Shown piece by piece: positions 1 to 58,923 of a stretch of 64,000 bases of DNA. A model generated the notes under the pieces. That model was not told the DNA's origin, ran no database searches, and worked only from the letters and a program-made list of their open reading frames with translations. This DNA is from an uncultured Acidobacteriota bacterium (GTDB taxonomy: Bacteria > Acidobacteriota > Terriglobia > Terriglobales > Acidobacteriaceae): assembly GCA_963825205.1 (NCBI GenBank), contig CAWGSE010000016.1, positions 27,421 through 91,420 on the forward strand, given 5' to 3'. The number at the start of each line of letters is the position of its first letter. Position 1 is the first letter of the stretch. The position numbers and the translations under genes are program-made.

Positions 1-866
1 CAATCGGTGGTTCGGAACGGGTTATCGAAAACCAGCGCGCTGATGTTGTTCTGAAAAAACGATCCCGTATACCCGAATTGCACCCCCCATCGCTTCCGGG
101 TATGCTCTGCCATGATTTTTACGTTGTTACTGAAGTAGTCAATCGGCTCGGTAAGCTCGGCTCCGTACCCTCCCGTCAGCGAGGCACTGGGGCTGGTGTT
201 GAAAATCAGGCCAATGGGCCTGAAGCCGGTTTCGTGCTCGCGAGCGAAGGACGCCAGCAGGCCCCAGTGCGGCGTCAGTTCATAGCCGAACATCGCGGTT
301 CCGGCTCGGCGCTCAATACCGGGAACAACGAAGTTCATGCTCGGCACCAGTTGCGTCTGGATCGTGCCTGGCAGGCTCGTCGGATCCGTGGCGGCAAGAT
401 TTTGCAGCGTGCTCCGGGTCAGCAAGGGGATGGTGAAAACTCCCCGTCCGGTTTCGGCATATAGGGTACGGGTGGTATTCGAATAAATATGAGGGATCTC
501 GTCATATCGAAACTGCAGCTTGAACCGGTTCCATCGCCCAAAGGTCACCAGGTAACTCTGATCGCGATAAATCGACTTGTCCGATTGCGCATCGAGGAAA
601 TATTTCGAGCCCCCCAGCTCATCCATGTTCAGCCGGAACCGGCGTACGAATACTCCGTCTCGCAAGTCGCGATACTCGTCATATTTTGACGTTTTCAACG
701 CGGGCTGGAAGGGCAGGTCAGGACGGCCATACACGTCGCCCCAACTCCAGCGGCTGCCCAGTTCTACGATCCCACGCTGGGGCGGCTGGTCCTGGCCCAT
801 TCCAGCAGCCGGCGCTATCAGGAGTGCTAGCAGCAGAAACACGGTCTTCTCGATTGCTGTTCTCAT
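1..866 (-). CDS. MtrB/PioB-like outer-membrane beta-barrel protein, N-terminal part (gene continues beyond the window start)
   Basis: Absent from the ORF track because it runs off the window. My translation of the minus strand from ATG 866 (GGGAGA a few nt upstream) stays open to base 1: MRTAIEKTVFLLLALLIAPAAGMGQDQ...KTSKYDEYRDLRDGVFVRRFRLNMDELGGSKYFLDAQSDKSIYRDQSYLVTFGRWNRFKLQFRYDEIPHIYS... It has a signal peptide and starts 13 nt after the decaheme gene stop. The family resemblance is from memory. Confidence 0.6.
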   Translation of the reverse strand, partial: MRTAIEKTVFLLLALLIAPAAGMGQDQPPQRGIVELGSRWSWGDVYGRPDLPFQPALKTSKYDEYRDLRDGVFVRRFRLNMDELGGSKYFLDAQSDKSIYRDQSYLVTFGRWNRFKLQFRYDEIPHIYSNTTRTLYAETGRGVFTIPLLTRSTLQNLAATDPTSLPGTIQTQLVPSMNFVVPGIERRAGTAMFGYELTPHWGLLASFAREHETGFRPIGLIFNTSPSASLTGGYGAELTEPIDYFSNNVKIMAEHTRKRWGVQFGYTGSFFQNNISALVFDNPFRTTD

Positions 867-2929: not shown

Positions 2930-3780
2930 ATGCTGAAAACGTTAACGCGTAGTGCGGTCCTGCTGACTCTCATCTTTGTCTGGTTCCCGCGTGCGCAGGC
3001 GCAGGAGTCACTCGAAGCGCTGCAAAAGCGTGCCGAGAAGGGCAGCCCGGAAGCTCAGACGGCCGTGGGTACGATGTACCGCAACGGTGAGGGCGTACAT
3101 CAGGACCTGGGAGAGGCGGTGCGGTGGTTTCGCCTGGCGGCCGTCCAGGGTTACGCCGAGGCCGAGAACAGCCTCGGGTTCCTCTACGATTACGGTGGCG
3201 GAGTTCCCATTGACCACCAGGAAGCGGCCCGCTGGTATCGCAAAGCCGCCGAGCAGGGCCATGCTGAGGCAGCCTTAAACCTGGGCTGGCTTTACGACAG
3301 CGGTCAGGATTTTCCAATTGACCATGCGGAGGCGCGCGCTGGTACCACAAGGCGGCCGAGCGGGGGAATGCAGACGCGGCCTTCGACCTGGGAGTGATTT
3401 ACGAGAATGCGCAAGGTGTCGAGCAGAATTACGTCGAGGCCATCCGCTGGTACCGCATGGCCGCAGACCAGGGAATGCACATTGCTCAGCTTAGCCTCGG
3501 CCGAATGTACGCCGGCGGCCGCGGCATCCTGAAGACAGATCCGGAATTCCAGAAACTTGTGCAGACCCTGAAGGCGAGAATTTCGCAAAAGCCCAGAGGT
3601 TCTGATGCGACCATCAAACACTTTGTGACCGTGCTCCGTCAGTTTTCGCGGATGAAGATGGCCTTCTTCGCGCTCTCGTGTTGCTTCCGCAGGGCACGGG
3701 CGGTATCGGCGAGGGGAGTGGTGGGACGCGGCGGCGGAGCCACTTCCCAGAGGGGCCGCTCGCCCTTCGCGGAACTGTAG
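2930..3780 (+). pseudogene. Sel1 (SLR) repeat protein with signal peptide, interrupted by a 1-nt frameshift in the GCGCGCGC run near 3331-3340
   Basis: ORFs 2930..3397 and 3394..3780 carry consecutive Sel1 repeats (AVRWFRLAAVQGYAEAENSLGFLY, AARWYRKAAEQGHAEAALNLGWLY, then AIRWYRMAADQG). The shifted frame reads RWYHKAAERGNADAAFDLGVIYENAQGVEQ across the junction. This could be a sequencing error. Confidence 0.8.
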
Positions 3781-42792: not shown

Positions 42793-45818
<3,026 letters not shown>

Positions 45819-45996: not shown

Positions 45997-46440
45997 ATGA
46001 TTGCACTTCGCCTTGTCCACCTGATCGAGAGCCACTCCGAAGAACTGGCGGAAGGACTCACCAAAAAACTGCTTTCCTCCGAACGCACCCGCGATCTGCG
46101 CAAGGTGCCGGCCGATGAGTTGCATCATCGCTGTCATGAGATTTACCGCAATCTCAGCGACTGGCTCCTGAACAAAACCGAGCACGATATCGAAAGCGTG
46201 TACAAGGCTCTCGGAGCTCGCCGCGCAGGCCAGGGAGTGTCGGGTGCCTGTCTGACCTGGGCCATCCTGCTCACCAAGGAGCATCTGTGGACCTTTCTGG
46301 AGTGGGAAGGCGTGCACGGCGGCCTGCACAATGTTTTCGGAGAACTCGAGTTGCTGAGGCTGCTCGATCAATTCTTTGACCGGGCTGTCTACTACGCGGC
46401 GGAAGGGTACGAGGAAGCCATCGCGTCGCGGGTGGCATGA
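45997..46440 (+). CDS. Hypothetical all-helical protein (147 aa)
   Basis: ORF track. GGGAGG upstream. No family recognised with confidence. Confidence 0.55.
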   Translation: MIALRLVHLIESHSEELAEGLTKKLLSSERTRDLRKVPADELHHRCHEIYRNLSDWLLNKTEHDIESVYKALGARRAGQGVSGACLTWAILLTKEHLWTFLEWEGVHGGLHNVFGELELLRLLDQFFDRAVYYAAEGYEEAIASRVA

Positions 46441-46446
46441 GGGCAC

Positions 46447-46508
46447 AAGCTTTTTACCGCAGAGATCGCAGAGAAGGCCGCAGAGGACGCGGAGAAAACT
46501 CTTAACCG
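46447..46508. repeat. CCGCAGAG/GCGGAGAA-type repeat arm (left arm of an inverted pair)
   Basis: AAGCTTTTTACCGCAGAGATCGCAGAGAAGGCCGCAGAGGACGCGGAGAAAACTCTTAACCG matches the reverse complement of 46873-46935. Confidence 0.85.
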
Positions 46509-46579
46509 TTCAATTGCGTGACACCCGAGCTCGTGAAGGCCACCGGCTGCGAGTGCTGCTAAATCCCTCCGATCTGGAA

Positions 46580-46789
46580 GCTGTTGTGCGGTAGCTGCCG
46601 TGATTGAGCTGCCGTGATTGAGCTGCCGTGATTGAGCTGCCGTGATTGAACTGCCGTGATTGAGCCGCTGTGATTGAGCCGCTGTGATTGAGCTGCTGTG
46701 ATGTAGCTGCTGTGATGTAGCTGCTGTGATGGAAATGCTGTAATGGAAATGCTGTAATGGAAATGCTGTAATGGAAATGCTCTGTCCCT
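46580..46789. repeat. 14-bp tandem repeat array (13 clear units plus degenerate end units)
   Basis: Units from 46594: 4x GCTGCCGTGATTGA, ACTGCCGTGATTGA, 2x GCCGCTGTGATTGA, 2x GCTGCTGTGATGTA, GCTGCTGTGATGGA, 3x AATGCTGTAATGGA. Confidence 0.95.
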
Positions 46790-46872
46790 GCACTCGCAAG
46801 GGGAATTCGCTCGCTGAGCCTGCGTTCCCGGGGAAGTGCTGTTCATGCCTTAGCCCACTGGGTTTGCCTTAG

Positions 46873-46935
46873 CGGTTAAAGGATTTTCTCAGCGCCCTCT
46901 GCGAAGCCTCCGCGCCCTCTGCGGTAAAAGCTTTT
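46873..46935. repeat. CCGCAGAG/GCGGAGAA-type repeat arm (right arm, inverted)
   Basis: CGGTTAAAGGATTTTCTCAGCGCCCTCTGCGAAGCCTCCGCGCCCTCTGCGGTAAAAGCTTTT. It overlaps the last ~15 codons of the CYTH gene. Confidence 0.85.
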
Positions 46936-47494
46936 GCCCGCCGCCAATCGCCCGAAACGTCATTTCCATAGCGGAACTCCGGCTCTCGCGCTTCCATTTG
47001 AAAAATAAACCCGCGTACGTGTCAGCGATGTAGTCCTGGGTCGAGATTCCCAGGAGTTTCGCAGTACGGTCTATCCACCGCGCCGGCCCTTCGATCTCGC
47101 CGAATTCTCCAATCGGCGTCACATCCAGCACCAACTGGCCCCGCCCGTCGCTCCACTCCGCCCGGAGCTTCTCGTAACGGAAGCTCGGCCGGAACCGCAG
47201 CGCCAGCAGAATGGCCTCCATCTTCTCGCCGTCGGCCACTTTGGTTTCGGTTTCCATGCGTGTTTTGTGGCGGCCCACCGTGCCCTTCGCCTTGTGCGTC
47301 AGCACCCAATCCTTCCCGTATTTGCGAAGCCGCAGCAGCTCGCCGCGCTTGCGCAGGGGCTGTCCCGGCAAATCGTAAAGCGTGTTCATTTCATGAGTGC
47401 GCGGCGTGACCAGTCGAAACTTCGCCGCCCGCAGCCGGCGTGTGAGTGCACGCAAGTTTGTAATCCGAAACTTGATCTCGATTTCTTTGGGCAT
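46889..47494 (-). CDS. CYTH domain protein (CyaB-like class IV adenylate cyclase / triphosphatase fold)
   Basis: N-terminal MPKEIEIKFRI (ExExK). The C-terminal tail QKLLPQRARRLRRGR is encoded by the repeat arm. Confidence 0.8.
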   Translation of the reverse strand: MPKEIEIKFRITNLRALTRRLRAAKFRLVTPRTHEMNTLYDLPGQPLRKRGELLRLRKYGKDWVLTHKAKGTVGRHKTRMETETKVADGEKMEAILLALRFRPSFRYEKLRAEWSDGRGQLVLDVTPIGEFGEIEGPARWIDRTAKLLGISTQDYIADTYAGLFFKWKRESRSSAMEMTFRAIGGGQKLLPQRARRLRRGR

Positions 47495-47502
47495 GGGGAC
47501 AA

Positions 47503-47647
47503 GGCTCTAGGCTTTAGGCTCTCGCAACTTTTCCGGCTGCGCCAACAGAATTTCACATTGCGCGTTGCGAGCCAGAAGCGGCCGCAAAACACGAGAGCCA
47601 GAGCCTAGAGCCTAGAGCCTAAGCCTAAAGCCTAGAGTCCAAAGCCC
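47503..47647. repeat. Composite hairpin repeat with 7-nt GGCTYTA-type arms
   Basis: The left arm GGCTCTAGGCTTTAGGCTCTCG pairs with the right arm CGAGAGCCAGAGCCTAGAGCCTAGAGCCTAAGCCTAAAGCCTAGAG. An inner 8-bp stem CTCGCAAC/GTTGCGAG is also present. It lies between the DedA-rhodanese stop and the CYTH start. Confidence 0.8.
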
Positions 47648-47653
47648 GCCCTG

Positions 47654-48634
47654 CTAACCAAACGTCGGCAACTTCACCAGATCCTCGCGCGGCACCGACT
47701 CCAGCGGTTGTCCCGCCTTGCGCCACGCCGCCAGCCCGCCGACAATGATAAACGCGTTGAATCCCTTTTCCCGCAGCATGTGCGCCACCCGGGCGCTGGT
47801 GCCTTCGCGCACTCAAGTGCAGTAGAGATAGATATCTCGATCCTTCGGAAGTTTCTTGAGTTCTTCCTCGAAGTTGTTGGGTTCGATGCGGATCGAGCCC
47901 TTGATGCGCGCCATCTCCGCGTCATAATAGCCGTGGCTGCGGACGTCCACCACCAAAACCCTCTCCGCTTCCGCCGAGGCCAGCTTCTCAATCAGTTCCT
48001 GCACCTGCACGCGCGGCACCACCCGGTACACTCGGTTCTTCCGGACCAGCCACAGCCGGTACGCGACGTACACCACGACGCCCACAAGCAGGACTTCTTC
48101 AATGGCACGTCCCGCGGTCTGGAAGGTGCGGCTGATGGCCTTGAGGAAGTCGCGACCCAGCAGCCCCAGCAGGAAATAGGCAAGCACGTACAGCGCGGCG
48201 CCCGCCAGGTCGAATCGCAGGAACTGGGAAAAGGGCATCTTCATGCTGCCCGCCAGGGGAGGCCCCATGGTGTTCACGCCGGGAATGAACTTGGCCACGA
48301 CCAGCGTGCTCTTGCCGCGCTTGTAGAACGACTCGGCGGAGCGCAGGATGCAGGTCTCGGGATTGGCCGACACTTTGCACAGGAATCCGAGAAGCGCCCA
48401 GCCCGAATGCCGGCCGGCAAAGAATAATAGGGTATCGCCCAGCACCATCGCGGCCAATGCGAGTGGCAACAGAACGGGAGCGCTCAACAGGTGCCCGGCG
48501 GCCGCCGCACCCGCGACAACCAGACCCAGGGCCGCGGGCACGGGTAGCCCAATCGCCTCCGCGAAGACCATCGCGACGACAATGCTGTATCCGTGCCGGG
48601 AGATCAACGAAACCAGGTCCGCCATGCGCTTCAA
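47654..48634 (-). CDS. DedA-family membrane domain fused to a rhodanese domain; in-frame TGA (47813-47815) at the expected catalytic Cys position, candidate selenocysteine
   Basis: ORF 47813..48634 ends ...KDRDIYLYCT-TGA. The same frame continues VREGTSARVAHMLREKGFNAFIIVGGLAAWRKAGQPLESVPREDLVKLPTFG to TAG 47654-47656, which completes the rhodanese domain. Confidence 0.6.
47780..47812 (-). promoter_or_regulatory. SECIS-like hairpin immediately 3' of the in-frame UGA
   Basis: The RNA can fold as GUGCGC-GAAGG-CACC-AGCGCCCG-GGUG-GCGCAC. An alternative fold is GCGCC-CGGGU-GGCGC, starting 16 nt after the UGA. Confidence 0.4.
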
Positions 48635-48750
48635 GCTAGATTAACGGGGATTGGAAGCGCAGTCCAGCCGGACGCAGGCCACGAAATGCGGAATCCGCGC
48701 CGGGTTCGCCATCATCCAACCAGAAAATCCATTCGTTCTTTCGAGGTGCT

Positions 48751-49152
48751 ATGTCCAGTTCAATAGCGACTGCCACACGCCGCCACATCAACCTTCCCGG
48801 CCGTACCTCGGCACTTCCTTTCAGCGATGCCGTGCTGGTGGGAGAGACACTTTACCTGGCTGGCCGGATCGGCCTCGACCCGGTGACCGGCCGCGCCCCC
48901 GCCGACGTGAGTGCCGAGATCCAACTGCTCCTCGATGGCGTCGAGGCCGTGCTGGCCGAGGCCGGCATGAAAATGGACGACCTGGTGTCGGTGCAGATAT
49001 TTTCTCCCGACCTTTCGCTGTGGGAGCCTTTCAACGCGGCGTATGTGAAGCGCTTTTCGAAAGAATTGCCGGCGCGGGCGTTTATCGGGTCCGGACCGTT
49101 GTTGCTGGGCGGGCGCTTCGAGTTGATTGGCATGGCGGTGCGAAGATCTTAA
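48751..49152 (+). CDS. RidA/YjgF family reactive-intermediate deaminase-like protein
   Basis: ORF track. FSDAVLVGETLYLAGRIGLDPVTG...ARAFIGSGPLLLGGRFELIGMA. The stop TAA lies inside the left terminal inverted repeat of the next element. Confidence 0.8.
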   Translation: MSSSIATATRRHINLPGRTSALPFSDAVLVGETLYLAGRIGLDPVTGRAPADVSAEIQLLLDGVEAVLAEAGMKMDDLVSVQIFSPDLSLWEPFNAAYVKRFSKELPARAFIGSGPLLLGGRFELIGMAVRRS

Positions 49153-49247
49153 ACCGCAGAGGGCGCGGAGAACGGCCGCAGAGCACGCAGAGAAACTCCC
49201 AGGAGAGTTCTGACACCGGGAAAGGTCCGAGGAAAAGCGCGGCCGCC

Positions 49248-49413
49248 TCAGCGATCTCTGCGGCAGTTCTCGGCGCACTCTGCGGTGGGCTCGTCTTCCC
49301 GATAGTCATTCACCATCCGCCGAACCCCGTCCCGCAACAGAACCACGTGGAAGTTGATCACCAGCCCAACCTGCAGGCCGAGCAGCCTGAGATGGGAGAG
49401 CAATTGTGCCTCG
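49248..49413 (-). pseudogene. 3' fragment of a GxxExxY gene created by a 244-bp tandem duplication
   Basis: ORF 49248..49553 contains HLVDEAQLLSHLRLLGLQVGLVINFHVVLLRDGVRRMVNDYREDEPTAECAENCRRDR, which duplicates the C-terminus of ORF 49492..49977. Confidence 0.8.
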
Positions 49414-49491
49414 TCAACCAGATGCTGGGAGCCTTCAAACTTCCAGGAGAGTTCTGACACCGGGAAAGGTCCGAGGAAAAGCGCGGCCGCC

Positions 49492-49914
49492 TCAGCGATC
49501 TCTGCGGCAGTTCTCGGCGCACTCTGCGGTGGGCTCGTCTTCCCGATAGTCATTCACCATCCGCCGAACCCCGTCCCGCAACAGAACCACGTGGAAGTTG
49601 AGCAGCAGCCCAACCTGCAGGCCGAGCAGCCTGAGATGGGAGAGCAATTGTGCCTCGTCAACCGGATGCAACTGATCCTTGCATTTCAATTCAACCACAA
49701 CCCGGCTATCTACCAGCAGATCCGCGCGAAACCCACACTCCAGCTTCACGCCTTCGTAAATTAAAGGCACACTCTTCTGTTGAATCACGCTGAGCCCTTG
49801 CGTCTTAAGTTCATAAGCGAGACACGCCTCATAGGCGGACTCCAGCAAGCCAGGACCGAGGCGGCGATGAATCTTGATTGCCGCTCCGATGATTCGATCG
49901 GTCAATTGAAACAT
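49492..49914 (-). CDS. GxxExxY family protein
   Basis: Start placed at ATG 49914 (MFQLTDRIIGAAIKIHRRLGPGLLESAYEACLAYELKTQG). The GLLESAY motif matches GxxExxY. The C-terminal tail is encoded by a repeat arm. Confidence 0.85.
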   Translation of the reverse strand: MFQLTDRIIGAAIKIHRRLGPGLLESAYEACLAYELKTQGLSVIQQKSVPLIYEGVKLECGFRADLLVDSRVVVELKCKDQLHPVDEAQLLSHLRLLGLQVGLLLNFHVVLLRDGVRRMVNDYREDEPTAECAENCRRDR

Positions 49915-50050
49915 CGGGATTCGGCCAGTCCGCTGCGAAATGGGCTGCAGGCTACGGGATGCAAGGGGAAGGCTCATGAAGCCGACGTTAGAGCAGGAAA
50001 TATGCGAGGTCTGTAACGGTTGTCACGCGAACACGTGAGCCCTTCTGGAT

Positions 50051-50197
50051 TTTCTCTGCGAACTCCACGGTAGTTCTCCGCGAACGCTGCGGCAGTTCTC
50101 CCCGAACTCCAGGCAGTTCTCCGCGAACTTTGCGGCAGTTCTCCGCGACTTTACGGCGGTTCTCTGCGCCCTCTCCGCGCCCTCTGCGGTTTAAGAT
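50051..50197. repeat. Six to seven tandem 21-22-nt units (TTCTCCGCGAACTNTGCGGCAG type) forming the right arm of the element
   Basis: Units read from 50051: TTCTCTGCGAACTCCACGGTAG, TTCTCCGCGAACGCTGCGGCAG, TTCTCCCCGAACTCCAGGCAG, TTCTCCGCGAACTTTGCGGCAG, TTCTCCGCGACTTTACGGCGG, and TTCTCTGCGCCCTCTCCGCGCCCTCTGCGGTTTAAGAT. Confidence 0.9.
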
Positions 50198-50201
50198 GTT
50201 G

Positions 50202-51209
50202 CTACTTCTCCCGCGCCACGACAAACTCGGGAGCCCACAGCAAAGCCCGCTTGATCTCCGAGTCAGGAAATGTGCAGATCGCCTTGCGCGCTGCTTCCGC
50301 GTAGTGCGTGGCCCGGGCATGCGCGGCTTCGAGGGCGCCGTAGCGGCTCAAAATTGCCAGGATATCCGCGTGGGTCACGCCGTTAAAGGCGCGATCGCGC
50401 AGCACGGTCGCGATTTTCTCGCGCTCCGCCGGCGTGCAGCGCTCCAGCGCGTAGATCACCGCCATGGTGACCTTGCCCTCGCGCAGGTCGCTGGCCACAG
50501 GCTTGCCCAGCACACTCTCCGAAGCGGTCAGGTCGAGTACGTCGTCCACGATCTGGAATGCCATGCCCAGGTTGCGGCCGTAGGAACCGGCAGCCTCTTC
50601 CTGCTCCGGGGTCGCTTCCCCCAGAATCGCGCCCAGCCGCATGCACACCGAAAACAGGCACGCGGTCTTGCGGAAGATCAGGTCGAAGTGCTCGTCGAGC
50701 GTGATCAACTTGCCCAGCTTTTCCATCTGCAGAAGTTCACCTTCGACCATCTGCTGGGTGAGTTCGATCAAGGTGTCAAGCACGCGGAAGTTGCGCTCCT
50801 GAACCGCGATCTTGAAGGACTGCATGTAGAGCCAGTCGCCGGCCAGCACGCACTTGGAGTTCCCCCAGCGGGTGTTCGCCGCGGGTCGGCCACGCCGGGT
50901 CTGGGCTTCGTCGATGATGTCGTCGTGGACGAGCGTGGCCGTATGAATGATCTCCACCACGGCTCCCAGGCGCACGGCCCCGGTGCCTTTGTACTGAAAA
51001 AGCTTCGCCGCCAGCAGCAGAAGCGCCGGCCGAATGCGCTTACCGCCGCCTTCCCGCAGGTACTCGCCAATCTCGGTGATGGCGGACACGTCGGAGACAG
51101 TGTCCTGCCCGAATTCCGCCTCGATGGCCAGCAGGTCATCGTGCAGCAGTTCGAAAATCTCTTTCCCGTTGATGGCTGAGGGTGTACTCAATCCGCCGCT
51201 TTCACTCAA
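50202..51209 (-). CDS. Polyprenyl diphosphate synthase (trans-isoprenyl, IspB-like)
   Basis: Aspartate-rich motifs LVHDDIIDE and FQIVDDVLD. Confidence 0.9.
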   Translation of the reverse strand: MSESGGLSTPSAINGKEIFELLHDDLLAIEAEFGQDTVSDVSAITEIGEYLREGGGKRIRPALLLLAAKLFQYKGTGAVRLGAVVEIIHTATLVHDDIIDEAQTRRGRPAANTRWGNSKCVLAGDWLYMQSFKIAVQERNFRVLDTLIELTQQMVEGELLQMEKLGKLITLDEHFDLIFRKTACLFSVCMRLGAILGEATPEQEEAAGSYGRNLGMAFQIVDDVLDLTASESVLGKPVASDLREGKVTMAVIYALERCTPAEREKIATVLRDRAFNGVTHADILAILSRYGALEAAHARATHYAEAARKAICTFPDSEIKRALLWAPEFVVAREK

Positions 51210-51217
51210 AATGATCT

Positions 51218-51340
51218 TTCACCACAGAGTCACAGAGACTCGGAGAAAATCGTTTCTAAATTCCAAATCCTCGATCGTGATGCTCGCCCGTACTTCAGAA
51301 TCCTGAGCCCCGATTTTCTTCTCCGTGCCTCGGTGGTGAA
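51218..51340. repeat. Composite hairpin repeat (CACAGAG-type arms) between yajQ and the polyprenyl synthase gene
   Basis: TTCACCACAGAGTCACAGAGACTCGGAGAAAATCG (51218-51252) pairs with CGATTTTCTTCTCCGTGCCTCGGTGGTGAA (51311-51340). Confidence 0.85.
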
Positions 51341-51348
51341 TTGACTCT

Positions 51349-51846
51349 TCAATTCGACCGGTAATTCGTAAACTGCAAATCGATGCCGAAATCGCGCGAC
51401 TTCAGCAGGGCAATGATTTCCTGCAGGGTGTCGCGATCCTTGCCGCTAATCCGAACCAGGTCGCCCTGGATCGACGCCTGCGCCTTCTTCTTCGAGTCCT
51501 TCACCAGCTTTACGATTTCGCGTGCTTTCTCGATAGCGATGCCTTGCTGGATCGTGATCTTCTGTTTGGCCGTGCCGCCCGCTGCCGGCTCCACCGGACC
51601 ATAGGTCAGGCCCTTGAGCGAAATGCCGCGCTTCACCAGTTTCTGCTGCAGGATATCGTTTACGGCCTTGAGCTTGTACTCGTCGGCCGAGTGCAGCAGG
51701 ATGGCGTCCTTGCCCTCCATCTCGATCCTCGACTTGGAGTCCTTCAGATCGAAACGGGTGGTCACTTCCTTCATGGCCTGCTGGATGGCATTGGAGGCCT
51801 CCTGCAGGTCAACTTTGCTGACGATATCGAAAGTATTCTCGGGCAT
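51349..51846 (-). CDS. yajQ: YajQ family nucleotide (cyclic-di-GMP)-binding protein
   Basis: MPENTFDIVSKVDLQEASNAIQQAMKEVTTRFDLKDS... is a characteristic UPF0234/YajQ sequence. Confidence 0.88.
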   Translation of the reverse strand: MPENTFDIVSKVDLQEASNAIQQAMKEVTTRFDLKDSKSRIEMEGKDAILLHSADEYKLKAVNDILQQKLVKRGISLKGLTYGPVEPAAGGTAKQKITIQQGIAIEKAREIVKLVKDSKKKAQASIQGDLVRISGKDRDTLQEIIALLKSRDFGIDLQFTNYRSN

Positions 51847-51907
51847 GATTCGCTACCTGATCAGATTCGCATTTCCCCGCGAAAGTCGCAGCTTACAAGC
51901 TAAACGG

Positions 51908-52711
51908 TCATGCGGTTTTCGTGAAGGGAAAAGAAGCTATGGAAATTTTGCGTAGTCTGTACACCGATTTCCTCCGCGGAGAGACCCCGCAATTCGCCCA
52001 GTGCCGCGCGACCTCTTTGACGAATGCCGGCTCATTGCGCTTGCCGCGATGCGGCACCGGCGCCAGGAATGGGGAATCGGTCTCGATCAGCAGGCGGTCG
52101 AGCGGCACTTCAAGCGCGGCGTCGCGAATCTGCTGCGCCTTCGGGAAGGTGATATTTCCGGCAAAAGAGACCATAAACCCCATGTCGAGCGCGCGCCTGG
52201 CTTGCGCCACGTTGCCGGTGAAGCAGTGCAGGATGCCACCCAGTCCGGCGGGCGCCCATTGTTCCTGAATCAGCCGCAGGCAATCGTCCCAGGCGTCTTC
52301 GCTGCCCTCCGATGGACGGCAATGAATCACGATGGGCAGCTTCGCGCTGCGGGCCAGTTCCATCTGCTTGACGAAGACTCCCTGCTGCACTTCGCGCGGA
52401 GAGTGATCGTAATAGTAATCCAGGCCGATTTCTCCCCAGGCTATGACCTTGGGTCGCTTGGCCATTTGTTCCATGCGCTCGAAGGCGGCCTGGTCTGCGA
52501 GTTTGGCTTCATGCGGATGGATGCCGATGGTCGCATAGATGAACTCGTACTTCTCGGCCAACTGGATGCCGCACTCGAAGTTCACCGGCCCATCGCCATT
52601 GCCGATGGCGACAATTGTGTCCACGCCCGCCTCGCGAGCCCGCGCGATCACCTGCTCGCGATCGGAGTCGAAGCGGTGGCCTTCGAGATGGGCGTGGGAA
52701 TCTACGAACAT
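51908..52711 (-). CDS. tatD: TatD family metal-dependent hydrolase
   Basis: MFVDSHAHL, plus the conserved HCF and ETDSPFL blocks. Confidence 0.9.
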   Translation of the reverse strand: MFVDSHAHLEGHRFDSDREQVIARAREAGVDTIVAIGNGDGPVNFECGIQLAEKYEFIYATIGIHPHEAKLADQAAFERMEQMAKRPKVIAWGEIGLDYYYDHSPREVQQGVFVKQMELARSAKLPIVIHCRPSEGSEDAWDDCLRLIQEQWAPAGLGGILHCFTGNVAQARRALDMGFMVSFAGNITFPKAQQIRDAALEVPLDRLLIETDSPFLAPVPHRGKRNEPAFVKEVARHWANCGVSPRRKSVYRLRKISIASFPFTKTA

Positions 52712-52897
52712 AGTCGCTGGTCGTTAGTCGTCAGTCGTTGGCAAAACCCGCGTAGGGACAGACGCCGTCTTTTGTCCAGACCGAGCGATAGCTCGGCTAG
52801 CTATCTGGGCAACGGTGAACAGCGCTCGGCCAACGTCTAACTCTTTTCCCCCGACGACTGGCGACGTTCTTCCCTGACGACTGAAGACTGAAGACTG
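52712..52897. repeat. Composite hairpin repeat with 7-nt GTCGTYR / CAGTCKT-type arms between metG and tatD
   Basis: The left arm AGTCGCTGGTCGTTAGTCGTCAGTCGTTGGC (52712-52742) pairs with the right arm CCCGACGACTGGCGACGTTCTTCCCTGACGACTGAAGACTGAAGACTG (52849-52897). The loop contains the small hairpin CCGAGC-GATA-GCTCGG. Confidence 0.8.
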
Positions 52898-52899
52898 TT

Positions 52900-54906
52900 C
52901 TATTTCAGCCGAGCTCCCACCGGCACATCCTCAAGAAATCCCGCCAACACGGGTTGCCCACCCTCAAGCGATGCCGCCACGATCATGCCATTCGACTCCA
53001 GGCCGCGCAGCTTGCGGGGCGCGAGGTTGGCGACGATGACCACTTTGCGGCCGACCAGCGTTTCGGGTGCGTAGGCTTCGGCGATCCCGGCCACGATCTG
53101 GCGCACTTCCGTCCCGATGTCGACTTCGAGACGCAGCAACTTGTCGGCATTCTTCACCTTCTCTGCGACTTTCACCACGCCAACCCGCAACTCAACCTTC
53201 ACGAAATCGTCGATGGTGATCTTGCCATCGGGCGTGGCTGCCGGCGGCTTCTGAGCGGGTATGACCGGGCGCAATGCAACCGGGGGCGCGAGTTCAGGTT
53301 TCGTTTCTTCCTCGACCGCTGCCGCGGGGCGTCCTTGCTCTTCCATCTTCTGCATCCTTTCCACGGCGCTCTTGTCGGCGCGCGGGAACACGGGCTGAAC
53401 CTCGCCCAGCCTGGTGCCCAGGCGAAGCTGTCCCCATTTCAATTCGCCCAGGGCGACGGTCTTGATATCTCCCAGGCCCAACTGCGTCCAGATTCTGGCG
53501 GTTGCGTCCGGAATGACCGGGTGTGCCAGCACAGTGACGATGCGCAGCGCTTCGGCAGCCGTATACAGAACGGTGGCCAGGCGGGCGCGGCTATCCTCAT
53601 CCTGCTTTTCTCCCAGCGCCCACGGCTCGTTTTCGACAATGTACTTGTCGACCGCCGCCACCAGCGTCCACGCCACTTCCAGGGCCTTGGAGAACTGGAA
53701 CTGGTCAAACAGGACGTTATAGTTCGCAATCACGTCGCGCGCGATCTCGGCAATCGCATCATCGGCGGGCGTGTGCGACGCGGTGTGCGAGGGATACGGC
53801 ACCTCACCCTTGAAATAGCGGGTGATCATGGTCAGGGTGCGGCTGGCCAGGTTGCCAATCCCATTGGCGAGATCGGAGTTGTAGCGCTGCACCAGGGCAT
53901 CGAATGAAAACGAGCCGTCCGAGCCAAACACCACCTCGCGCAAAAGAAAATAACGCAGCGCGTCGGCGCCGAGCACGTCGAGAATCGTTTCCGCGCGCAC
54001 GATGTTGCCGCGCGACTTCGACATCTTGTTCTCTTCGAACAGCAGCCAGCCGTGCGCCATGATGCCTTTGGGCAACGGCAGTCCCGCAGCCATCAGGAAC
54101 GCCGGCCAGTAGACGCAGTGGAAGCGGACAATTTCCTTGCCGATCATCTGCACGTCGGCCGGCCAGTACTTGTCGTACTTGGCCGTGTCCGGCGACCCGT
54201 AACCGAGCGCGGTAATGTAGTTGGCCAGCGCGTCCAGCCAGACATAGATCACGTGCTTGGGATCGTCGGGCACGGGAATGCCCCAGGAGAACGTGCTGCG
54301 GCTGATGGAAAGATCCTTTAATCCTCCCTTGACGAACGAGATTACTTCGTTGCGGCGCGTCTCCGGGCGGATCCAATTGGGCTGGTCGGTATAGAGCTGC
54401 AGCAACTTGTCCGCGAACGCCGAAAGCTTGAAGAAATAGTTTTCTTCGTGCACGGTTTCGGTGATGCGGCCGCACTCCGGACAGGGCTCACCCGGCCCGA
54501 CATCGACGTACATCTCGTCGGAAACGCAATACTGTCCGGTATAGCTGCCTTTGTAGATGTAGCCGTTCTCGTTAAGCTTGCGGAACAGCGCCTGCACGCT
54601 TTTCTTGTGACGATCTTCGGTGGTGCGGATGAAGTCGTTGTGGGTGAGCCCCATGCGCTTCCAAAGCGCGCGAAATTCGCCGGAAACTTCATCGGCAAAT
54701 TGCTGCGGGGTCTTCCCGGCAGCGGCGGCGGCCCGTTCGATCTTCTGCCCGTGTTCATCGGTGCCGGTCAGGAAATAGGTGTCGTCGCCCAGCATGCGGT
54801 GGCGGCGCGCGATGGTGTCGCAGGCTATGGTCGTGTAGGCGTGTCCGATATGAGGACGCGCGTTGACGTAATAAATCGGGGTCGTGATGTAGAACTTCTT
54901 GCTCAT
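52900..54906 (-). CDS. metG: Methionine--tRNA ligase with C-terminal tRNA-binding domain
   Basis: HIGHAYT and KMSKS motifs, plus the zinc knuckle CPECG. Confidence 0.95.
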   Translation of the reverse strand: MSKKFYITTPIYYVNARPHIGHAYTTIACDTIARRHRMLGDDTYFLTGTDEHGQKIERAAAAAGKTPQQFADEVSGEFRALWKRMGLTHNDFIRTTEDRHKKSVQALFRKLNENGYIYKGSYTGQYCVSDEMYVDVGPGEPCPECGRITETVHEENYFFKLSAFADKLLQLYTDQPNWIRPETRRNEVISFVKGGLKDLSISRSTFSWGIPVPDDPKHVIYVWLDALANYITALGYGSPDTAKYDKYWPADVQMIGKEIVRFHCVYWPAFLMAAGLPLPKGIMAHGWLLFEENKMSKSRGNIVRAETILDVLGADALRYFLLREVVFGSDGSFSFDALVQRYNSDLANGIGNLASRTLTMITRYFKGEVPYPSHTASHTPADDAIAEIARDVIANYNVLFDQFQFSKALEVAWTLVAAVDKYIVENEPWALGEKQDEDSRARLATVLYTAAEALRIVTVLAHPVIPDATARIWTQLGLGDIKTVALGELKWGQLRLGTRLGEVQPVFPRADKSAVERMQKMEEQGRPAAAVEEETKPELAPPVALRPVIPAQKPPAATPDGKITIDDFVKVELRVGVVKVAEKVKNADKLLRLEVDIGTEVRQIVAGIAEAYAPETLVGRKVVIVANLAPRKLRGLESNGMIVAASLEGGQPVLAGFLEDVPVGARLK

Positions 54907-54943
54907 GAGAACTTGAAACCCAGCGGCTGCAAAAGGCGCGAAA

Positions 54944-55000
54944 GTAACCCGAAGGATAACAGGCCGCGCTTCCTTCGTGCTTTCCCGGTGTCCTTCGTGG
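54944..55000. repeat. Hairpin repeat with CACGAAGG-type arms between larC and metG
   Basis: CCGAAGGA (54949-54956) pairs with TCCTTCG (54971-54977). The long arm CTTCCTTCGTGCTTTCCCGGTGTCCTTCGTGG ends at the larC stop. Confidence 0.7.
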
Positions 55001-56407
55001 CTAAGCTTTTTTGCCGGCCGCGCTCAGCAGGTAAGCCTGCGTCGCTTCCTGCATAACGGTTTTCAGCGGTACCCGATGCTGGGCGGCGATGCGGCGGCAA
55101 TCCTCGTACTCAGGCGCGCAGTTGGTCACGGTGCCGTTCATGCTGGCAATTTTCATGCGTACATCGCCCCAGGAAGTCGCTACGGTGACCCAGCGCCGGG
55201 CGAGCGTGTTGCGCTGTTCCTGGCGCTGCCGCACTCCCAGGGTCGTGGTCTCGGCAAAAATGATTTGCGTAAGCTTGGCGGCGTCTGCGGGCTTGCACAG
55301 AACCGTCAGCAGCGTGCCGGGCCGGCTCTTTTTCATTTGCACCGGCATCCCGAAGACGTCCAGCGCGCCCTCTTCGAGCAGGCGGTCGAGCACGTAGCCG
55401 AAGACCTGCGGGTTCAAATCATCCAGGTTCGCCTCCAGCACCGAAATGGTTTCCTGGGCGGTTTTGGAGGCGAGGGCGGAAGCTGCTTCGCCGATCGTGA
55501 TGCGGACCACGTTGGCGTGTCCGGGAAAATCGCGGGTGCCGGCTCCATAGCCGCTGCGCTCAATCTTCATTTCTGGAAATGCTCCGAAGCGGGTGGCCAG
55601 CACCTTCACGATGGCGGCACCCGTAGGGGTGAGCAACTCGGCCTGGATTCCCGAGGAAAAGACCGGCGCATTCTGCAGCAGTTCCACCGTGGCGGGTGCA
55701 GGCACCGGAAACACTCCGTGCGCGCACTTCACTGTACCGCCGCCCAGGTTGAGCGCTGAGCAGACAATTTCTTCCACCCCCAGCGCCTCCGCGCCCACGG
55801 CCGCGCCCACGATGTCGACCATCGCGTCGACCGCGCCCACCTCGTGGAAGTGCACCGCCTCCATGTCCATGTTGTGAATCTTGGCTTCGGCCGCACCCAG
55901 AGCTTCGAAAATGGCAATCGCGGTCTGCTTTGCAGAATCGCTGATTGCCGTGCCCGCGATGATCCGCTTGATCTGCTTCAGGCTGCGACCGTGCTCATGC
56001 AGGCTCCCGCTCCGCGAAGAAGCCGGCGAGTGCGAATGACCGTGCGGATTCTCGTCGAGCGGTGCCGGACCGTGCGAGTGAGCCTGCGCCGGATCGTGTG
56101 AATGCACCGGTGCGGGATCGTGCAGGTGAGCCTGCGCAGGATCGTGCGAATGCGCGTGATCATGCGCAGTTTCGCGCTGCGCCCAAAACTCCTCCCGCGG
56201 CAATTCCTTCTCACCATGGACCAGCACATCCACCTTGGTCGCCGTGATCCCGCTGCGGTTGACCTTCGAGATCTCCAACCGAGCTCCGATGTTGAGCGCC
56301 GCGACGGTTTTCTCCAGCACGTCGGGGGACACCCCGGAGTCGATCAGGGCGCCCAGGAACATGTCGCCGCTCATGCCGGAAAAACAATCAAGGTATGCGA
56401 TCTTCAT
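55001..56407 (-). CDS. larC: LarC-type nickel insertion protein (nickel-pincer cofactor biosynthesis; DUF111)
   Basis: Start placed at ATG 56407 (MKIAYLDCFSGMSGDMFLGALIDSG). His-rich segment HDHAHSHDPAQAHLHDPAPVHSHDPAQAHSHGP. Confidence 0.88.
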   Translation of the reverse strand: MKIAYLDCFSGMSGDMFLGALIDSGVSPDVLEKTVAALNIGARLEISKVNRSGITATKVDVLVHGEKELPREEFWAQRETAHDHAHSHDPAQAHLHDPAPVHSHDPAQAHSHGPAPLDENPHGHSHSPASSRSGSLHEHGRSLKQIKRIIAGTAISDSAKQTAIAIFEALGAAEAKIHNMDMEAVHFHEVGAVDAMVDIVGAAVGAEALGVEEIVCSALNLGGGTVKCAHGVFPVPAPATVELLQNAPVFSSGIQAELLTPTGAAIVKVLATRFGAFPEMKIERSGYGAGTRDFPGHANVVRITIGEAASALASKTAQETISVLEANLDDLNPQVFGYVLDRLLEEGALDVFGMPVQMKKSRPGTLLTVLCKPADAAKLTQIIFAETTTLGVRQRQEQRNTLARRWVTVATSWGDVRMKIASMNGTVTNCAPEYEDCRRIAAQHRVPLKTVMQEATQAYLLSAAGKKA

Positions 56408-56411
56408 CAGG

Positions 56412-56450
56412 ACTTTCTTCACCACAAAAGACACGAAGTACCGAACGAGG
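56412..56450. repeat. Solo repeat arm (TTCACCAC...CACGAAG type)
   Basis: CTTTCTTCACCACAAAAGACACGAAGTACCGAACGAGGG resembles the reverse complement of 54969-55000. Confidence 0.55.
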
Positions 56451-56512
56451 GATCGCGCAGGCTCTTCGGGCCGCGCCGTTCCAGACTAGGGCGCCTCTCA
56501 ACCACGGGCACC

Positions 56513-56690
56513 GCTCAGCGCCCTCTACGGCAGTTCTCCCCGAACTCTGCGGTAGTTCTCCCCGAACTCTGCGGCAGCCCTCCGCGAACTCTGCGGTAGT
56601 CGTCCGTGCACTTTGCGGCAAGTTCTCCCCGAACTCTACGGCAGTTCTCCGCGCCCTCTGCGGTAGTTCTCCGCGAACTCTGCGGTAACA
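56513..56690. repeat. Eight tandem ~22-nt units (TTCTCCCCGAACTCTGCGGYAG type)
   Basis: Contiguous units read from the sequence. The array ends CTGCGGTAACAGCTC, like the terminus at 46921-46935. Confidence 0.9.
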
Positions 56691-56822
56691 GCTCTTCCCC
56701 ACCTTCTCCCCGAAACAAAACTCAAACTTCATGATAGGGAACACAAGTATCCAGCGTCAAACCAGCCGCGCTCTCCCCTTTTGCTACAATCACTAGTTTA
56801 ATCAACAAGTTAGAGGGGCCTT

Positions 56823-58923
56823 GTGTATCGCACGCTGGAACGCCGTTTAATCCATCACGTTAGAGATTTCCTGCGCCGCACCTACGACCTCGATCTCCCG
56901 AAAATCGTGGTGGAGCAACCGCCCAAGGTCGAACTGGGCGAGTACGCCATGCCGCTTGCCTTTGAGCTGGCCAAGAAACTGCGTAAGGCGCCGCGCAAGA
57001 TTGCCGAGGAAATCGTGGCCGGGATCGAGCCGATTGCAGGATTTGAGAAGCTGGAAGTCGCCGGGGCCGGCTACATCAATGCCCGCGTGCACCGCGGCGC
57101 GGTAGCTGCGGGGTTGCTGGCCGACGAGAATCCCCAAGTCGACGTGCCCGCCGGCAAAATTCTGGTCGAGCACTCCAGCATCAACCCCAACAAGGCCGCG
57201 CACATCGGCCACCTGCGCAATGCGATTCTGGGCGACACGTTTGTCCGGTTGCTTCGTTTTGCCGGCAGGGAAGTCGATGTTCAGAACTACATTGACAACA
57301 CCGGCGTACAGGTGGCCGACGTGGTCGTGGGCTTTCTCTATCTCGAGAAGAAATCCCGGGCTGAGATCGAACGGCTTGCCGCTCAGCCGCGCTTTGACTA
57401 CGAGTGCTGGGACCTCTACGCGCGCGCCTCGCAGTGGTATGCCGAGGACAAGCAGAACCAGCAGGCACGGCTTAAGACCCTGCACGAAATCGAAGCCGGC
57501 GGAAACGAAGTCGCTGCCATCGCCGACCTGATTTCGGTGGCGGTGCTTCGCCGCCACCTCGAGACCATGGACCGGCTCGATATCGAATACGACTTCCTGC
57601 CGCGGGAGAGCGAAATTCTGCATTTGCATTTCTGGGACGCCGCTTTTGCGAAGCTAAAAGACGCGGGGGTGCTGTTCTACGAGACGGAAGGGAAGAACAA
57701 GGGCTGCTGGGTGATGCGGCGAGCGGGCACTGCGAAAAAATCTGAAACCGCAGAGGTCGCGGAGAACGCCGCAGAGGACGCGGAGCAGGCTGCAGAGGAG
57801 GCGGAGAAAGCTGCAAAGGACGCGGAGAAGCCAGCAGGGGACGCCGAGAAGCCAGCCAAGGACGCCGAGTCTCCCGATGTGGTCTCTGCGGAAGATCAGA
57901 AAGTGATTGTCCGGTCCAACGGTACCGTCGGCTACGTGGGCAAGGACATCGCCTACCACATGTGGAAGTTCGGGCTGCTCGGACGCGACTTCGAATACTG
58001 CAGGTTTTACAAATATCCGAACCAGCACCAGGTGCTGGATTTCGGCGGCCCAGGGCGAGCAAGACCATCCTCATTTCGGCGACGTGGCTGAAATCTATAA
58101 CGTCATTGACGCGCGCCAGGCGGAGGCGCAGAACACCGTCATCGAAGCCCTGCGCGGGCTCGGCCACAACGACGCCGCCGACCATTACACCCATTTTTCC
58201 TACGAGATGGTTGCGCTGACTCCGCGCTGCGCCGCCGAACTGGGCTACCAGTTGTCGGACGAGGATAAGGCCCGGCCCTACATCGAAGTCTCGGGCCGCA
58301 AAGGCTTTGGCGTGAAAGCGGATGACCTGCTCGACCGCCTCATCGCGTCCGCAAAAGCGGAAGTCGATCCGCGCCATCCCCAGTTGAGCGACCAGGAGCG
58401 GCGCAGCATCGCCACCCAGATCGCCATCGGAGCTTTGCGCTACTTCATGCTGAAGTACACCAAGCCATCGGTCATCGCCTTCGACTTCAAAGATGCGTTG
58501 AGCTTCGAGGGCGAAACCGGGCCCTACGCGCAATATGCCGTGGTGCGCGCCACTAACATTTTCCGCAAAGGGGGATTCGATCCCGACAAGTTCAGCCAGG
58601 ACACGTCCAACCATCTCTCGGCGGAGGACTTCGGGAAGTCATTGGCGGGCGAATCGGGCAACGAAATCTGGGAGCTCTGGTTAGCCGCGGCCAAGACTGC
58701 GTACGTGGTGGACCAGTGCATTGCGACCACGGAGCCCGCGTATCTCGCCAAGCACGCATTTCAACTGGCCCAGCTCTTTAACTACTTTTACCACCGCCAT
58801 CCCATCTTGAATGAAGCCGATGAGGGCCGGAAGAAATTTCTGCTGGCCACGGTAGCGGTGGTGCGCCGCGAACTGATGCGTACGCTGGTGGTCCTGGGTA
58901 TCACTGTCCCGCCAGTGATGTAG
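56823..58923 (+). CDS. argS: Arginine--tRNA ligase, interrupted as given by one extra nt at about 58035, and carrying an in-frame repeat-derived insertion
   Basis: ORFs 56823..58091 and 57907..58923. HIGH-type motif AAHIGHLRNAILGD. The frame switch is at YPNQHQV|WISAAQGEQDHPHFGDVAEIYNVIDARQ. The gene is essential, so the frameshift is probably a sequence error. Confidence 0.92.
57740..57896. repeat. CCGCAGAG/GCGGAGAA-type element inserted in frame within argS
   Basis: ATCTGAAACCGCAGAGGTCGCGGAGAACGCCGCAGAGGACGCGGAG...TCTCTGCGGAAGAT. Both ends resemble the 26-bp TIR of the 49146-50197 element. It is translated as SETAEVAENAAEDAEQAAEEAEKAAKDAEKPAGDAEKPAKDAESPDVVSAED. Confidence 0.75.

Follow-up and report, generated by a model that had tools for sequence, protein, structure and literature searches.

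The subject of this study is an acidic segment inside the argS gene (arginine--tRNA ligase, ArgRS) of an uncultured Acidobacteriota bacterium, in a 64,000-nucleotide (nt) stretch of contig CAWGSE010000016.1 (assembly GCA_963825205.1) referred to here as the window. Sequence comparison indicates that this segment is extra to ArgRS and is derived from a dispersed repeat family with further copies in the window. [quoted passage not shown] Early in Terriglobales, the catalytic domain of ArgRS would have received a repeat copy in a hairpin loop that varies naturally, flanked by GCWVMRRAGT and [IV][STA]EEDQKVIVRSNGT; the window lineage would have inherited a copy that was already stop-free (TCT-GAA-ACC), two units would have become six by tandem duplication in this lineage, and the segment would be translated as an alanine-/glutamate-rich low-complexity loop. 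Across the order, the loop would have kept changing, whether through exchange with copies elsewhere in the genome, through fresh insertions, or through other small repeats nested in it. The argS features are:

56823-58923, + strand: argS (arginine--tRNA ligase), as two overlapping open reading frames (ORFs), 56823-58091 and 57907-58923, owing to a 1-nt insertion
57735-57756, + strand: left terminus of the repeat in argS, read K-K-S-E-T-A-E (AAAAAATCTGAAACCGCAGAGG); base 57744 is G where both intergenic termini have T (TAA)
57747-57872, + strand: six tandem 21-nt units, TAEVAEN, AAEDAEQ, AAEEAEK, AAKDAEK, PAGDAEK and PAKDAES, all in the CCGCAGAG orientation
57873-57899, + strand: native right flank of the loop, P-D-V-V-S-A-E-D-Q, including CTCTGCGGAAGAT (57884-57896), which was earlier taken as a right terminus
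58032-58036, + strand: argS frameshift site, CAGGTGCTGG against CAGGTCTGG (H-Q-V-W) in the related locus L002, one extra base by DNA alignment

Repeat sequence within argS

The region 57740-57896 lies within the frame of the first argS ORF (422 codons) and encodes SETAEVAENAAEDAEQAAEEAEKAAKDAEKPAGDAEKPAKDAESPDVVSAED, with SETAEVAENAAEDAEQAAEEAEK among its predicted peptides. Codons 57735-57872 consist of the left terminus and six units of the dispersed family (unit starts 57747, 57768, 57789, 57810, 57831 and 57852), and Tandem Repeats Finder (TRF) gave 6.1 copies of a 21-nt unit at 57744-57869. At the left end, ATCTGAAACCGCAGAGG (57740-57756) is one base (57744) off ATCTTAAACCGCAGAGG, of which there are exact copies at 49146 (+) and 50197 (-); with up to three mismatches allowed, this 17-mer has four matches in the window, with 0.06 expected. 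The initial annotation had described the segment as translated in the argS frame, and its strings, coordinates and frames were borne out by the ORFs, TRF and the 17-mer search. Its reading of the left end, that a T to G difference from the element terminus changes TCT-TAA to TCT-GAA, likewise agrees with base 57744 as compared with the copies at 49146 and 50197 (insert frame AAA TCT GAA).

Comparison of the insert with the intergenic copies by blastn extended this match to 39 nt at 92% identity (46456-46494, E 1.5e-8), 43 nt at 91% (49146-49188) and 40 nt at 90% (56647-56686), with E values from 1.5e-8 to 2e-4 over the three copies. In inverted orientation, 57737-57767 is 84-95% complementary to the array upstream of argS (95% over 21 nt). 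The insert frame gives acidic residues, whereas the other frames of the units give arginine-rich peptides, and the argS array proceeds in 21-nt steps only, compared with 22-nt units in the intergenic arrays. Units in the window differ among themselves by 3-9 of 21 nt, and the last two have a CCA codon in common, which fits duplication in place. The repeat is read in frame and without a stop inside a conserved housekeeping ORF, and its flanks are invariant in 120 protein orthologues. A scan of metagenomes for the left junction AAAAAATCTGAAACCGCAGAG gave only a chance match in an ABC-transporter gene. An AlphaFold model of the N-terminal 404 residues had a mean pLDDT (predicted local distance difference test score) of 50, with a low-confidence helix at 312-333 only, and was not used for loop placement.

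The acidic heptads could instead have grown from native argS sequence by slippage, the likeness to the intergenic copies being coincidental or those copies being themselves derived from argS. Acidic low-complexity loops are able to expand in this way, and the native flank GAGGAGATC slightly resembles the unit GCGGAGAA. However, the match takes in the non-repetitive terminal motif (16 of 17 nt) and not just the units, it holds at 90-92% over 39-43 nt for three intergenic copies, intergenic copies of the family number in the dozens across 80 other genomes, and basal alleles are without repeats. We therefore regard slippage as hardly credible.

Age, ends and turnover of the insertion

The comparison set comprised 79-80 related Terriglobales loci (L-numbers; 81 with the window) and the 120 protein orthologues, ∼200 alleles in all, in which the loop runs from 16 to ∼100 residues. 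Alignment to the best PDB relatives is lost at query residue 299 and regained at 361 for 2zue (Pyrococcus horikoshii) and at 350 for 1iq0 (Thermus thermophilus), so that ∼48-50 residues of the window ArgRS are without counterpart in these structures. Among 84 diverse ArgRS members the stretch from GCWVM to KV-IVRSNGT is mostly 8-20 residues long and is usually closed by (L)ED(P)DKV; in the window it has 61 residues. This alignment supports the initial claim that the segment is an insertion, and the finding that would have spoken against it, a similar acidic segment in orthologues from repeat-free genomes, was not encountered: relatives outside the order have short loops. The site is presumably a hairpin loop shortly before the arginine-contacting SDG-T..Y...D motif.

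Two close relatives, L001 (87% nt identity) and L002 (83%), both syntenic with larC upstream, were compared as DNA. Both carry AAAAAATCTGAAACCGCAGAG at the same codon and with the same G as the window. Because these sister genomes have the same site and the same TCT-GAA, the insertion is old rather than recent in the window genome. They have two units where the window has six, and the alignment gap is exactly 84 nt (4 × 21); by this comparison, only the 84-nt tandem expansion is specific to the window. Two alleles have no recognisable repeat, L048 and L058 (KRAGVAAGEEIADEDQ), the latter basal in a neighbour-joining tree. In the part of the repeat common to the window, L001 and L002, third positions are identical in 14 of 17 codons, compared with 54-57% in native argS, which hints weakly at DNA-level constraint or homogenisation.

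From the 60 terminus-pattern matches in the 81 loci a longer, A-rich terminus emerges, AAAA.C[CT]T(T/A)AACC[GA]CAGAGG (AAAA.C[CT]T(T/G)AACC[GA]CAGAG for comparison with the left terminus in argS), with flavours TTAAACC and TTTAACC, and the units occur in flavours CCGCAGAG and CCACAGAG. The 23 matches that are argS copies all share one codon phase, and most of the others carry the A-rich terminus. In argS the terminus takes two forms: many alleles read NCT-TTA-ACC-ACA-GAG (K.LTTE), with the TAA out of frame, and the clade of the window reads NCT-GAA-ACC-GCN-GAG (K.ETAE). Intergenic copies in the window, L003 and L006 have TTAAACC with three A's, which in the argS phase would give TAA. Avoidance of the stop by T to G may fairly be taken as a limit on the kind of copy that survives; that the mutation took place in the window lineage is not thereby shown, because the sister genomes already have the G. 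Of the initial proposal that both terminal TAA stops had been neutralised, the left half is thus plausible, although the NCT-TTA-ACC alleles offer an alternative in which the TAA is simply out of frame; the right half fails, since the codons there are native.

At the right end, the initial annotation had seen an element terminus lacking TTT, and this did not hold: CTCTGCGGAAGAT lies in the native V-S-A-E-D codons. Every codon of the window S-P-D-V-V-S-A-E-D-Q has its partner, without gaps, in S-G-D-A-V-S-E-E-D-Q of L007 and S-V-G-D-V-S-E-E-D-Q of L001, and the flank is orthologous in the same way to S-x-D-x-V-S-E-E-D-Q in L001, L002 and L007. Almost every one of the 120 protein orthologues and 79 genomic loci, the repeat-free L058 and L048 among them, has [IV][STA]EEDQ followed by KVIVRSNGT; insert-free Terriglobales alleles read EEIADEDQ or QLSEEDQ, and in distant relatives the counterpart of the window ED is the ED of (L)ED(P)DKV. 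Sister alleles with the same insertion have TTCCGAGG or TGCCGACG at this place. Two synonymous changes plus one E-to-A replacement turn GTT TCC GAG into the window 8-mer CTCTGCGG, and GAAGAT is the ancestral E-D. Because the units all point one way and the supposed right terminus consists of native codons, the argS copy, which has the left terminus only, is best described from its sequence as one-armed, like the 50040-50197 array with its terminus.

The reading behind the initial annotation is a complete two-ended element which lost its left TAA by T to G and its right one by loss of TTT, with CTCTGCGG-AAGAT as a relic of the right inverted terminus. In its favour, the string CTCTGCGGAAGAT does occur at 57884-57896, the perfect 8-mer is found only in the window (2-5 mismatches in the 79 other loci) and is unlikely from chance alone, and AAGAT also stands at both flanks of the 49146-50197 element. 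The gap-free alignment of the ten right-flank codons to sister alleles, the near-universal [IV][STA]EEDQ, the ED of distant relatives and the sequences of the insertion-sharing sisters all go against it, as does the lack of any inverted-orientation unit ahead of the 8-mer, and we judge it unlikely. What keeps some small probability is the copying of a short patch from a repeat, given the perfect 8-mer. A model in which AAGAT is a target-site duplication in argS was dropped, as the junction would fall in codons native to insert-free alleles.

Beyond the window clade, loop inserts match intergenic repeats of their own or other genomes (L028, 98% over 56 nt). Different repeat flavours are found despite argS flanks that are 86-94% identical (L012/L030 vs L016; L017/L026 vs L035/L036/L028). 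Moreover, L015 differs from its sister L018 by a 24-nt nested in-frame insertion, GACCCTTCGGCTTCGCTCAGGGCAGGCTC, and this repeat is also intergenic in L012, L013, L045 and L018 itself (L018:3795). Tentatively, and with somewhat more doubt than trust, the GCWVM-KVIVRSNGT loop of Terriglobales ArgRS might be a recurrent landing pad that exchanges sequence with the mobile repeat pool of the genome.

The small dispersed repeat nested in L015, in the form GACCCTTCG[AG]CTTCGCTCAGGGCAGGCTC, is in frame in the argS loop of L015 (10950-10985), L024, L028 and L069 (peptide DPSASLRAGS) and absent from the L018 allele. At the same loop, a fragment of release-factor domain 3, 55-65 aa long, is present in P0006, P0019, P0059, P0066, P0071, P0093, P0103 and P0109 and at L043 10895-11128; it scores 42.9 and 46.8 bits with Pfam RF-1 (cut-off 35), its best PDB match is RF1 2fvo (E 5.6e-12), and a deletion of ∼10 residues falls exactly over the GGQ segment.

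Several points weigh against the one-armed, early insertion. Neither a target-site duplication nor an empty-site pair marks the original argS insertion, which may have entered by transposition or by illegitimate recombination, and the neighbour-joining tree, which has no bootstrap, does not cleanly separate a single ancient insertion with turnover from several insertions. The flavour of the argS insert was not significantly associated with that of the flanking repeats (Mann-Whitney p 0.10, Fisher p 0.22), and a matrix of 11-mers shared between argS inserts and their own 20-kb flanks was too noisy. The exact CTCTGCGG is an outlier, with 0 mismatches in the window compared with the 2-5 elsewhere, which chance explains only moderately well. 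Finally, argS is frameshifted in the sequence as given, and translation and enzyme function are predictions from sequence.

Reading frame of the window argS

The gene has the parts of a class I arginine--tRNA ligase: Pfam places Arg_tRNA_synt_N and tRNA-synt_1d on the first ORF, with the HIGH motif of the catalytic core (AHIGH in translation), and the anticodon-binding DALR_1 on the second. The repaired frame encodes 699 aa, with 89% identity to a Terriglobales ArgRS of 671 aa; among the closest orthologues, which without exception come from Terriglobales, identity is 78-89%. The reading frame is interrupted by a +1 shift, the extra base at ∼58033-58035 moving the C-terminal 338 codons to another frame, which is open throughout. 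Codon-position 1/2/3 identities to L001 are 94/97/71% downstream of the shift and 94/97/69% upstream. In the same window, secA is split into ORFs 42793-44319 and 44352-45818 in different frames; the break lies near 44295-44300, where AAAAAGGGATCAAG reads like a GGGG run short of one G. A homopolymer indel thus splits secA too, and the C-terminal half of argS keeps coding-type conservation, so that the argS frameshift most likely stems from an error in assembly and not from decay. A programmed frameshift at 58035 was considered and dropped, since secA shows an ordinary homopolymer indel.

If the frameshift were real, argS could be a decaying pseudogene, in which relaxed constraint would account for the long array and the E-to-A change. 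The gene is indeed split by a 1-nt insertion, its array is the longest pure one among the alleles seen, and a near-invariant E is replaced by A. Against this, secA, another single-copy essential gene, is likewise split, the 338-codon shifted frame is open with codon-position identities as upstream, which implies purifying selection until very recently, and there is no second argS in the window; we consider decay very improbable. The earlier statement that an essential gene tolerates the insert is qualified by the frameshift. Most likely the insert is tolerated rather than useful.

The repeat family and related systems

Four features of the window are built of CCGCAGAG / GCGGAGAA units: the argS copy and three others, which are listed here with the genes they touch.

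56488-56709, - strand: intergenic array of ∼8 units of 22 nt between larC and argS; terminus CTGTTACCGCAGAG
49146-50197, no strand assigned: composite element in the spacer that separates the convergent RidA and polyprenyl synthase genes, with perfect 17-nt inverted termini
49492-49977, - strand: GxxExxY / PDDEXK_3 gene inside the composite element (Pfam PF13366 1.5e-38, TIGR04256 2.1e-40)
46449-46937, no strand assigned: second element, with termini AAGCTTTT(T)ACCGCAGAG at both ends and arms of 21-nt units
48751-49152, + strand: RidA gene, its stop TAA (49150-49152) within the composite-element terminus

TRF found a 22-nt period at 56523-56685 (7.4 copies) and at 50052-50168 (5.4 copies). The repeat arms of the composite element lie at 49146-49200, 49255-49290 and 50040-50197, and the element has a 244-nt internal duplication. 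AAGAT is present at both its ends and overlaps the palindrome AAGATCTT; empty RidA-IspB sites leave the junctions unfixed. As in MITEs, terminal inverted repeats are present (the 17-nt termini at 49146/50197 and the paired ends of the second element), and copies are small and numerous, at four window sites and with the 60 terminus matches in 81 loci. No transposase is seen: the second element and the 56488-56709 array are without a gene, and the composite element carries the PDDEXK_3 gene only. The flanks of the 80 related loci contain family termini at dozens of additional positions. Rfam gave no hit at gathering thresholds over the whole window and none at E up to 1 over 46300-58000.

The repeats also shape gene ends. 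RidA ends in AGA TCT TAA, giving ..AVRRS* in the window where the native form, as in L004, is ..AVRR*, which confirms the initial observation that its stop is the same TCT-TAA of the element terminus. The right arm of the second element encodes the last ∼16 codons (..QKLLPQRARRLRRGR*) of a CYTH-domain gene (46889-47494, - strand), whose C-terminus and stop are therefore repeat-derived. The middle of the second element is an unrelated 14-nt minisatellite (46579-46781). In larC (55001-56434, - strand), in-frame 24/48-nt tandem repeats at 56060-56153 encode a His/Pro-rich stretch, and LarC has 477 aa in the window compared with 444 aa in L001 and L002.

The RidA-IspB spacer measures 7-110 nt in most relatives (7 nt in L040), 1056 nt in the window and 688 nt in L020, where it also holds a GxxExxY gene with repeats; on these lengths and contents it is another apparent hot spot. 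GxxExxY / PDDEXK_3 genes at L020 ∼3164-3568, L033 ∼3169-3540 and L049 ∼3342-3758 also adjoin repeats, and at every site seen such genes lie less than 400 nt from repeat units, the background being 0.10 units per 400 nt. The gene may be an autonomous or helper partner of the repeats. In the window, a 244-nt tandem duplication (98% identical, 49193-49669) covers the 3′-end of this gene and the adjoining inverted repeat arm.

Translation of an in-frame repeat in a housekeeping gene is already a known kind of event, as in Rickettsia; here it concerns a loop that seems to have been filled repeatedly, in related species, with different mobile sequences. Our literature search found no description of this Acidobacteria repeat family or of the ArgRS loop. 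Rickettsia palindromic elements (RPEs) are inserted in frame in housekeeping genes (Ogata et al. 2000, 2002, as summarised in PMC10969869). Like the argS repeat, they are small and dispersed and lie between genes as well as in frame in unrelated housekeeping genes, where they add a peptide at a fold-compatible place, and in both cases the insertions are common to related species. RPEs are ∼150-bp palindromes with a conserved peptide, whereas the argS element is a terminal motif with a 21/22-nt minisatellite, one arm and not a long palindrome; its peptide, unlike that of RPEs, is of low complexity and variable length, and a single loop has repeatedly been the site of hits or remodelling across the order. 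This comparison is by description, a sequence relation not being expected.

BrickBuilt, a MITE of Porphyromonas gingivalis for which only intergenic sites are reported (PMC4596501), resembles the family in its spacer-less head-to-tail minisatellite (23 nt there, 22 nt here) set between leader and tail parts, its small inverted ends and its many copies. The family departs from an exclusively intergenic location in the argS copy and in the RidA and CYTH 3′ overlaps, and some of its copies adjoin a GxxExxY / PDDEXK_3 gene; BrickBuilt belongs to another phylum and is likewise set beside it by description. Intragenic ERIC and RU elements of enterobacteria and QMITE1 of Coxiella form in-frame fusions or new C-termini (PMC2759123, PMC5896051, reviewed in PMC10969869), and as MITE-like repeats with open frames they compare with the RidA stop codon and the CYTH tail. 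They differ in family and host, and the cited texts give no variation in the number of tandem units inside an essential enzyme.

For annotation, acidic low-complexity inserts and odd C-termini in Acidobacteria can come from repeats, and this assembly probably carries indel errors in essential genes. With the argS case, the few examples of selfish repeats translated in essential genes extend to a soil phylum and to an element of minisatellite type. Its allele series lends itself to asking what insertions are tolerated by a class I synthetase, how selection acts as the repeat copy number changes in multiples of three, and whether coding copies are homogenised with genomic ones. If the loop is indeed a recurrent landing pad, small mobile repeats would go on supplying an essential translation enzyme with grafted peptides and domains, and acidic or RF-like grafts might even act at the ribosome or tRNA interface.

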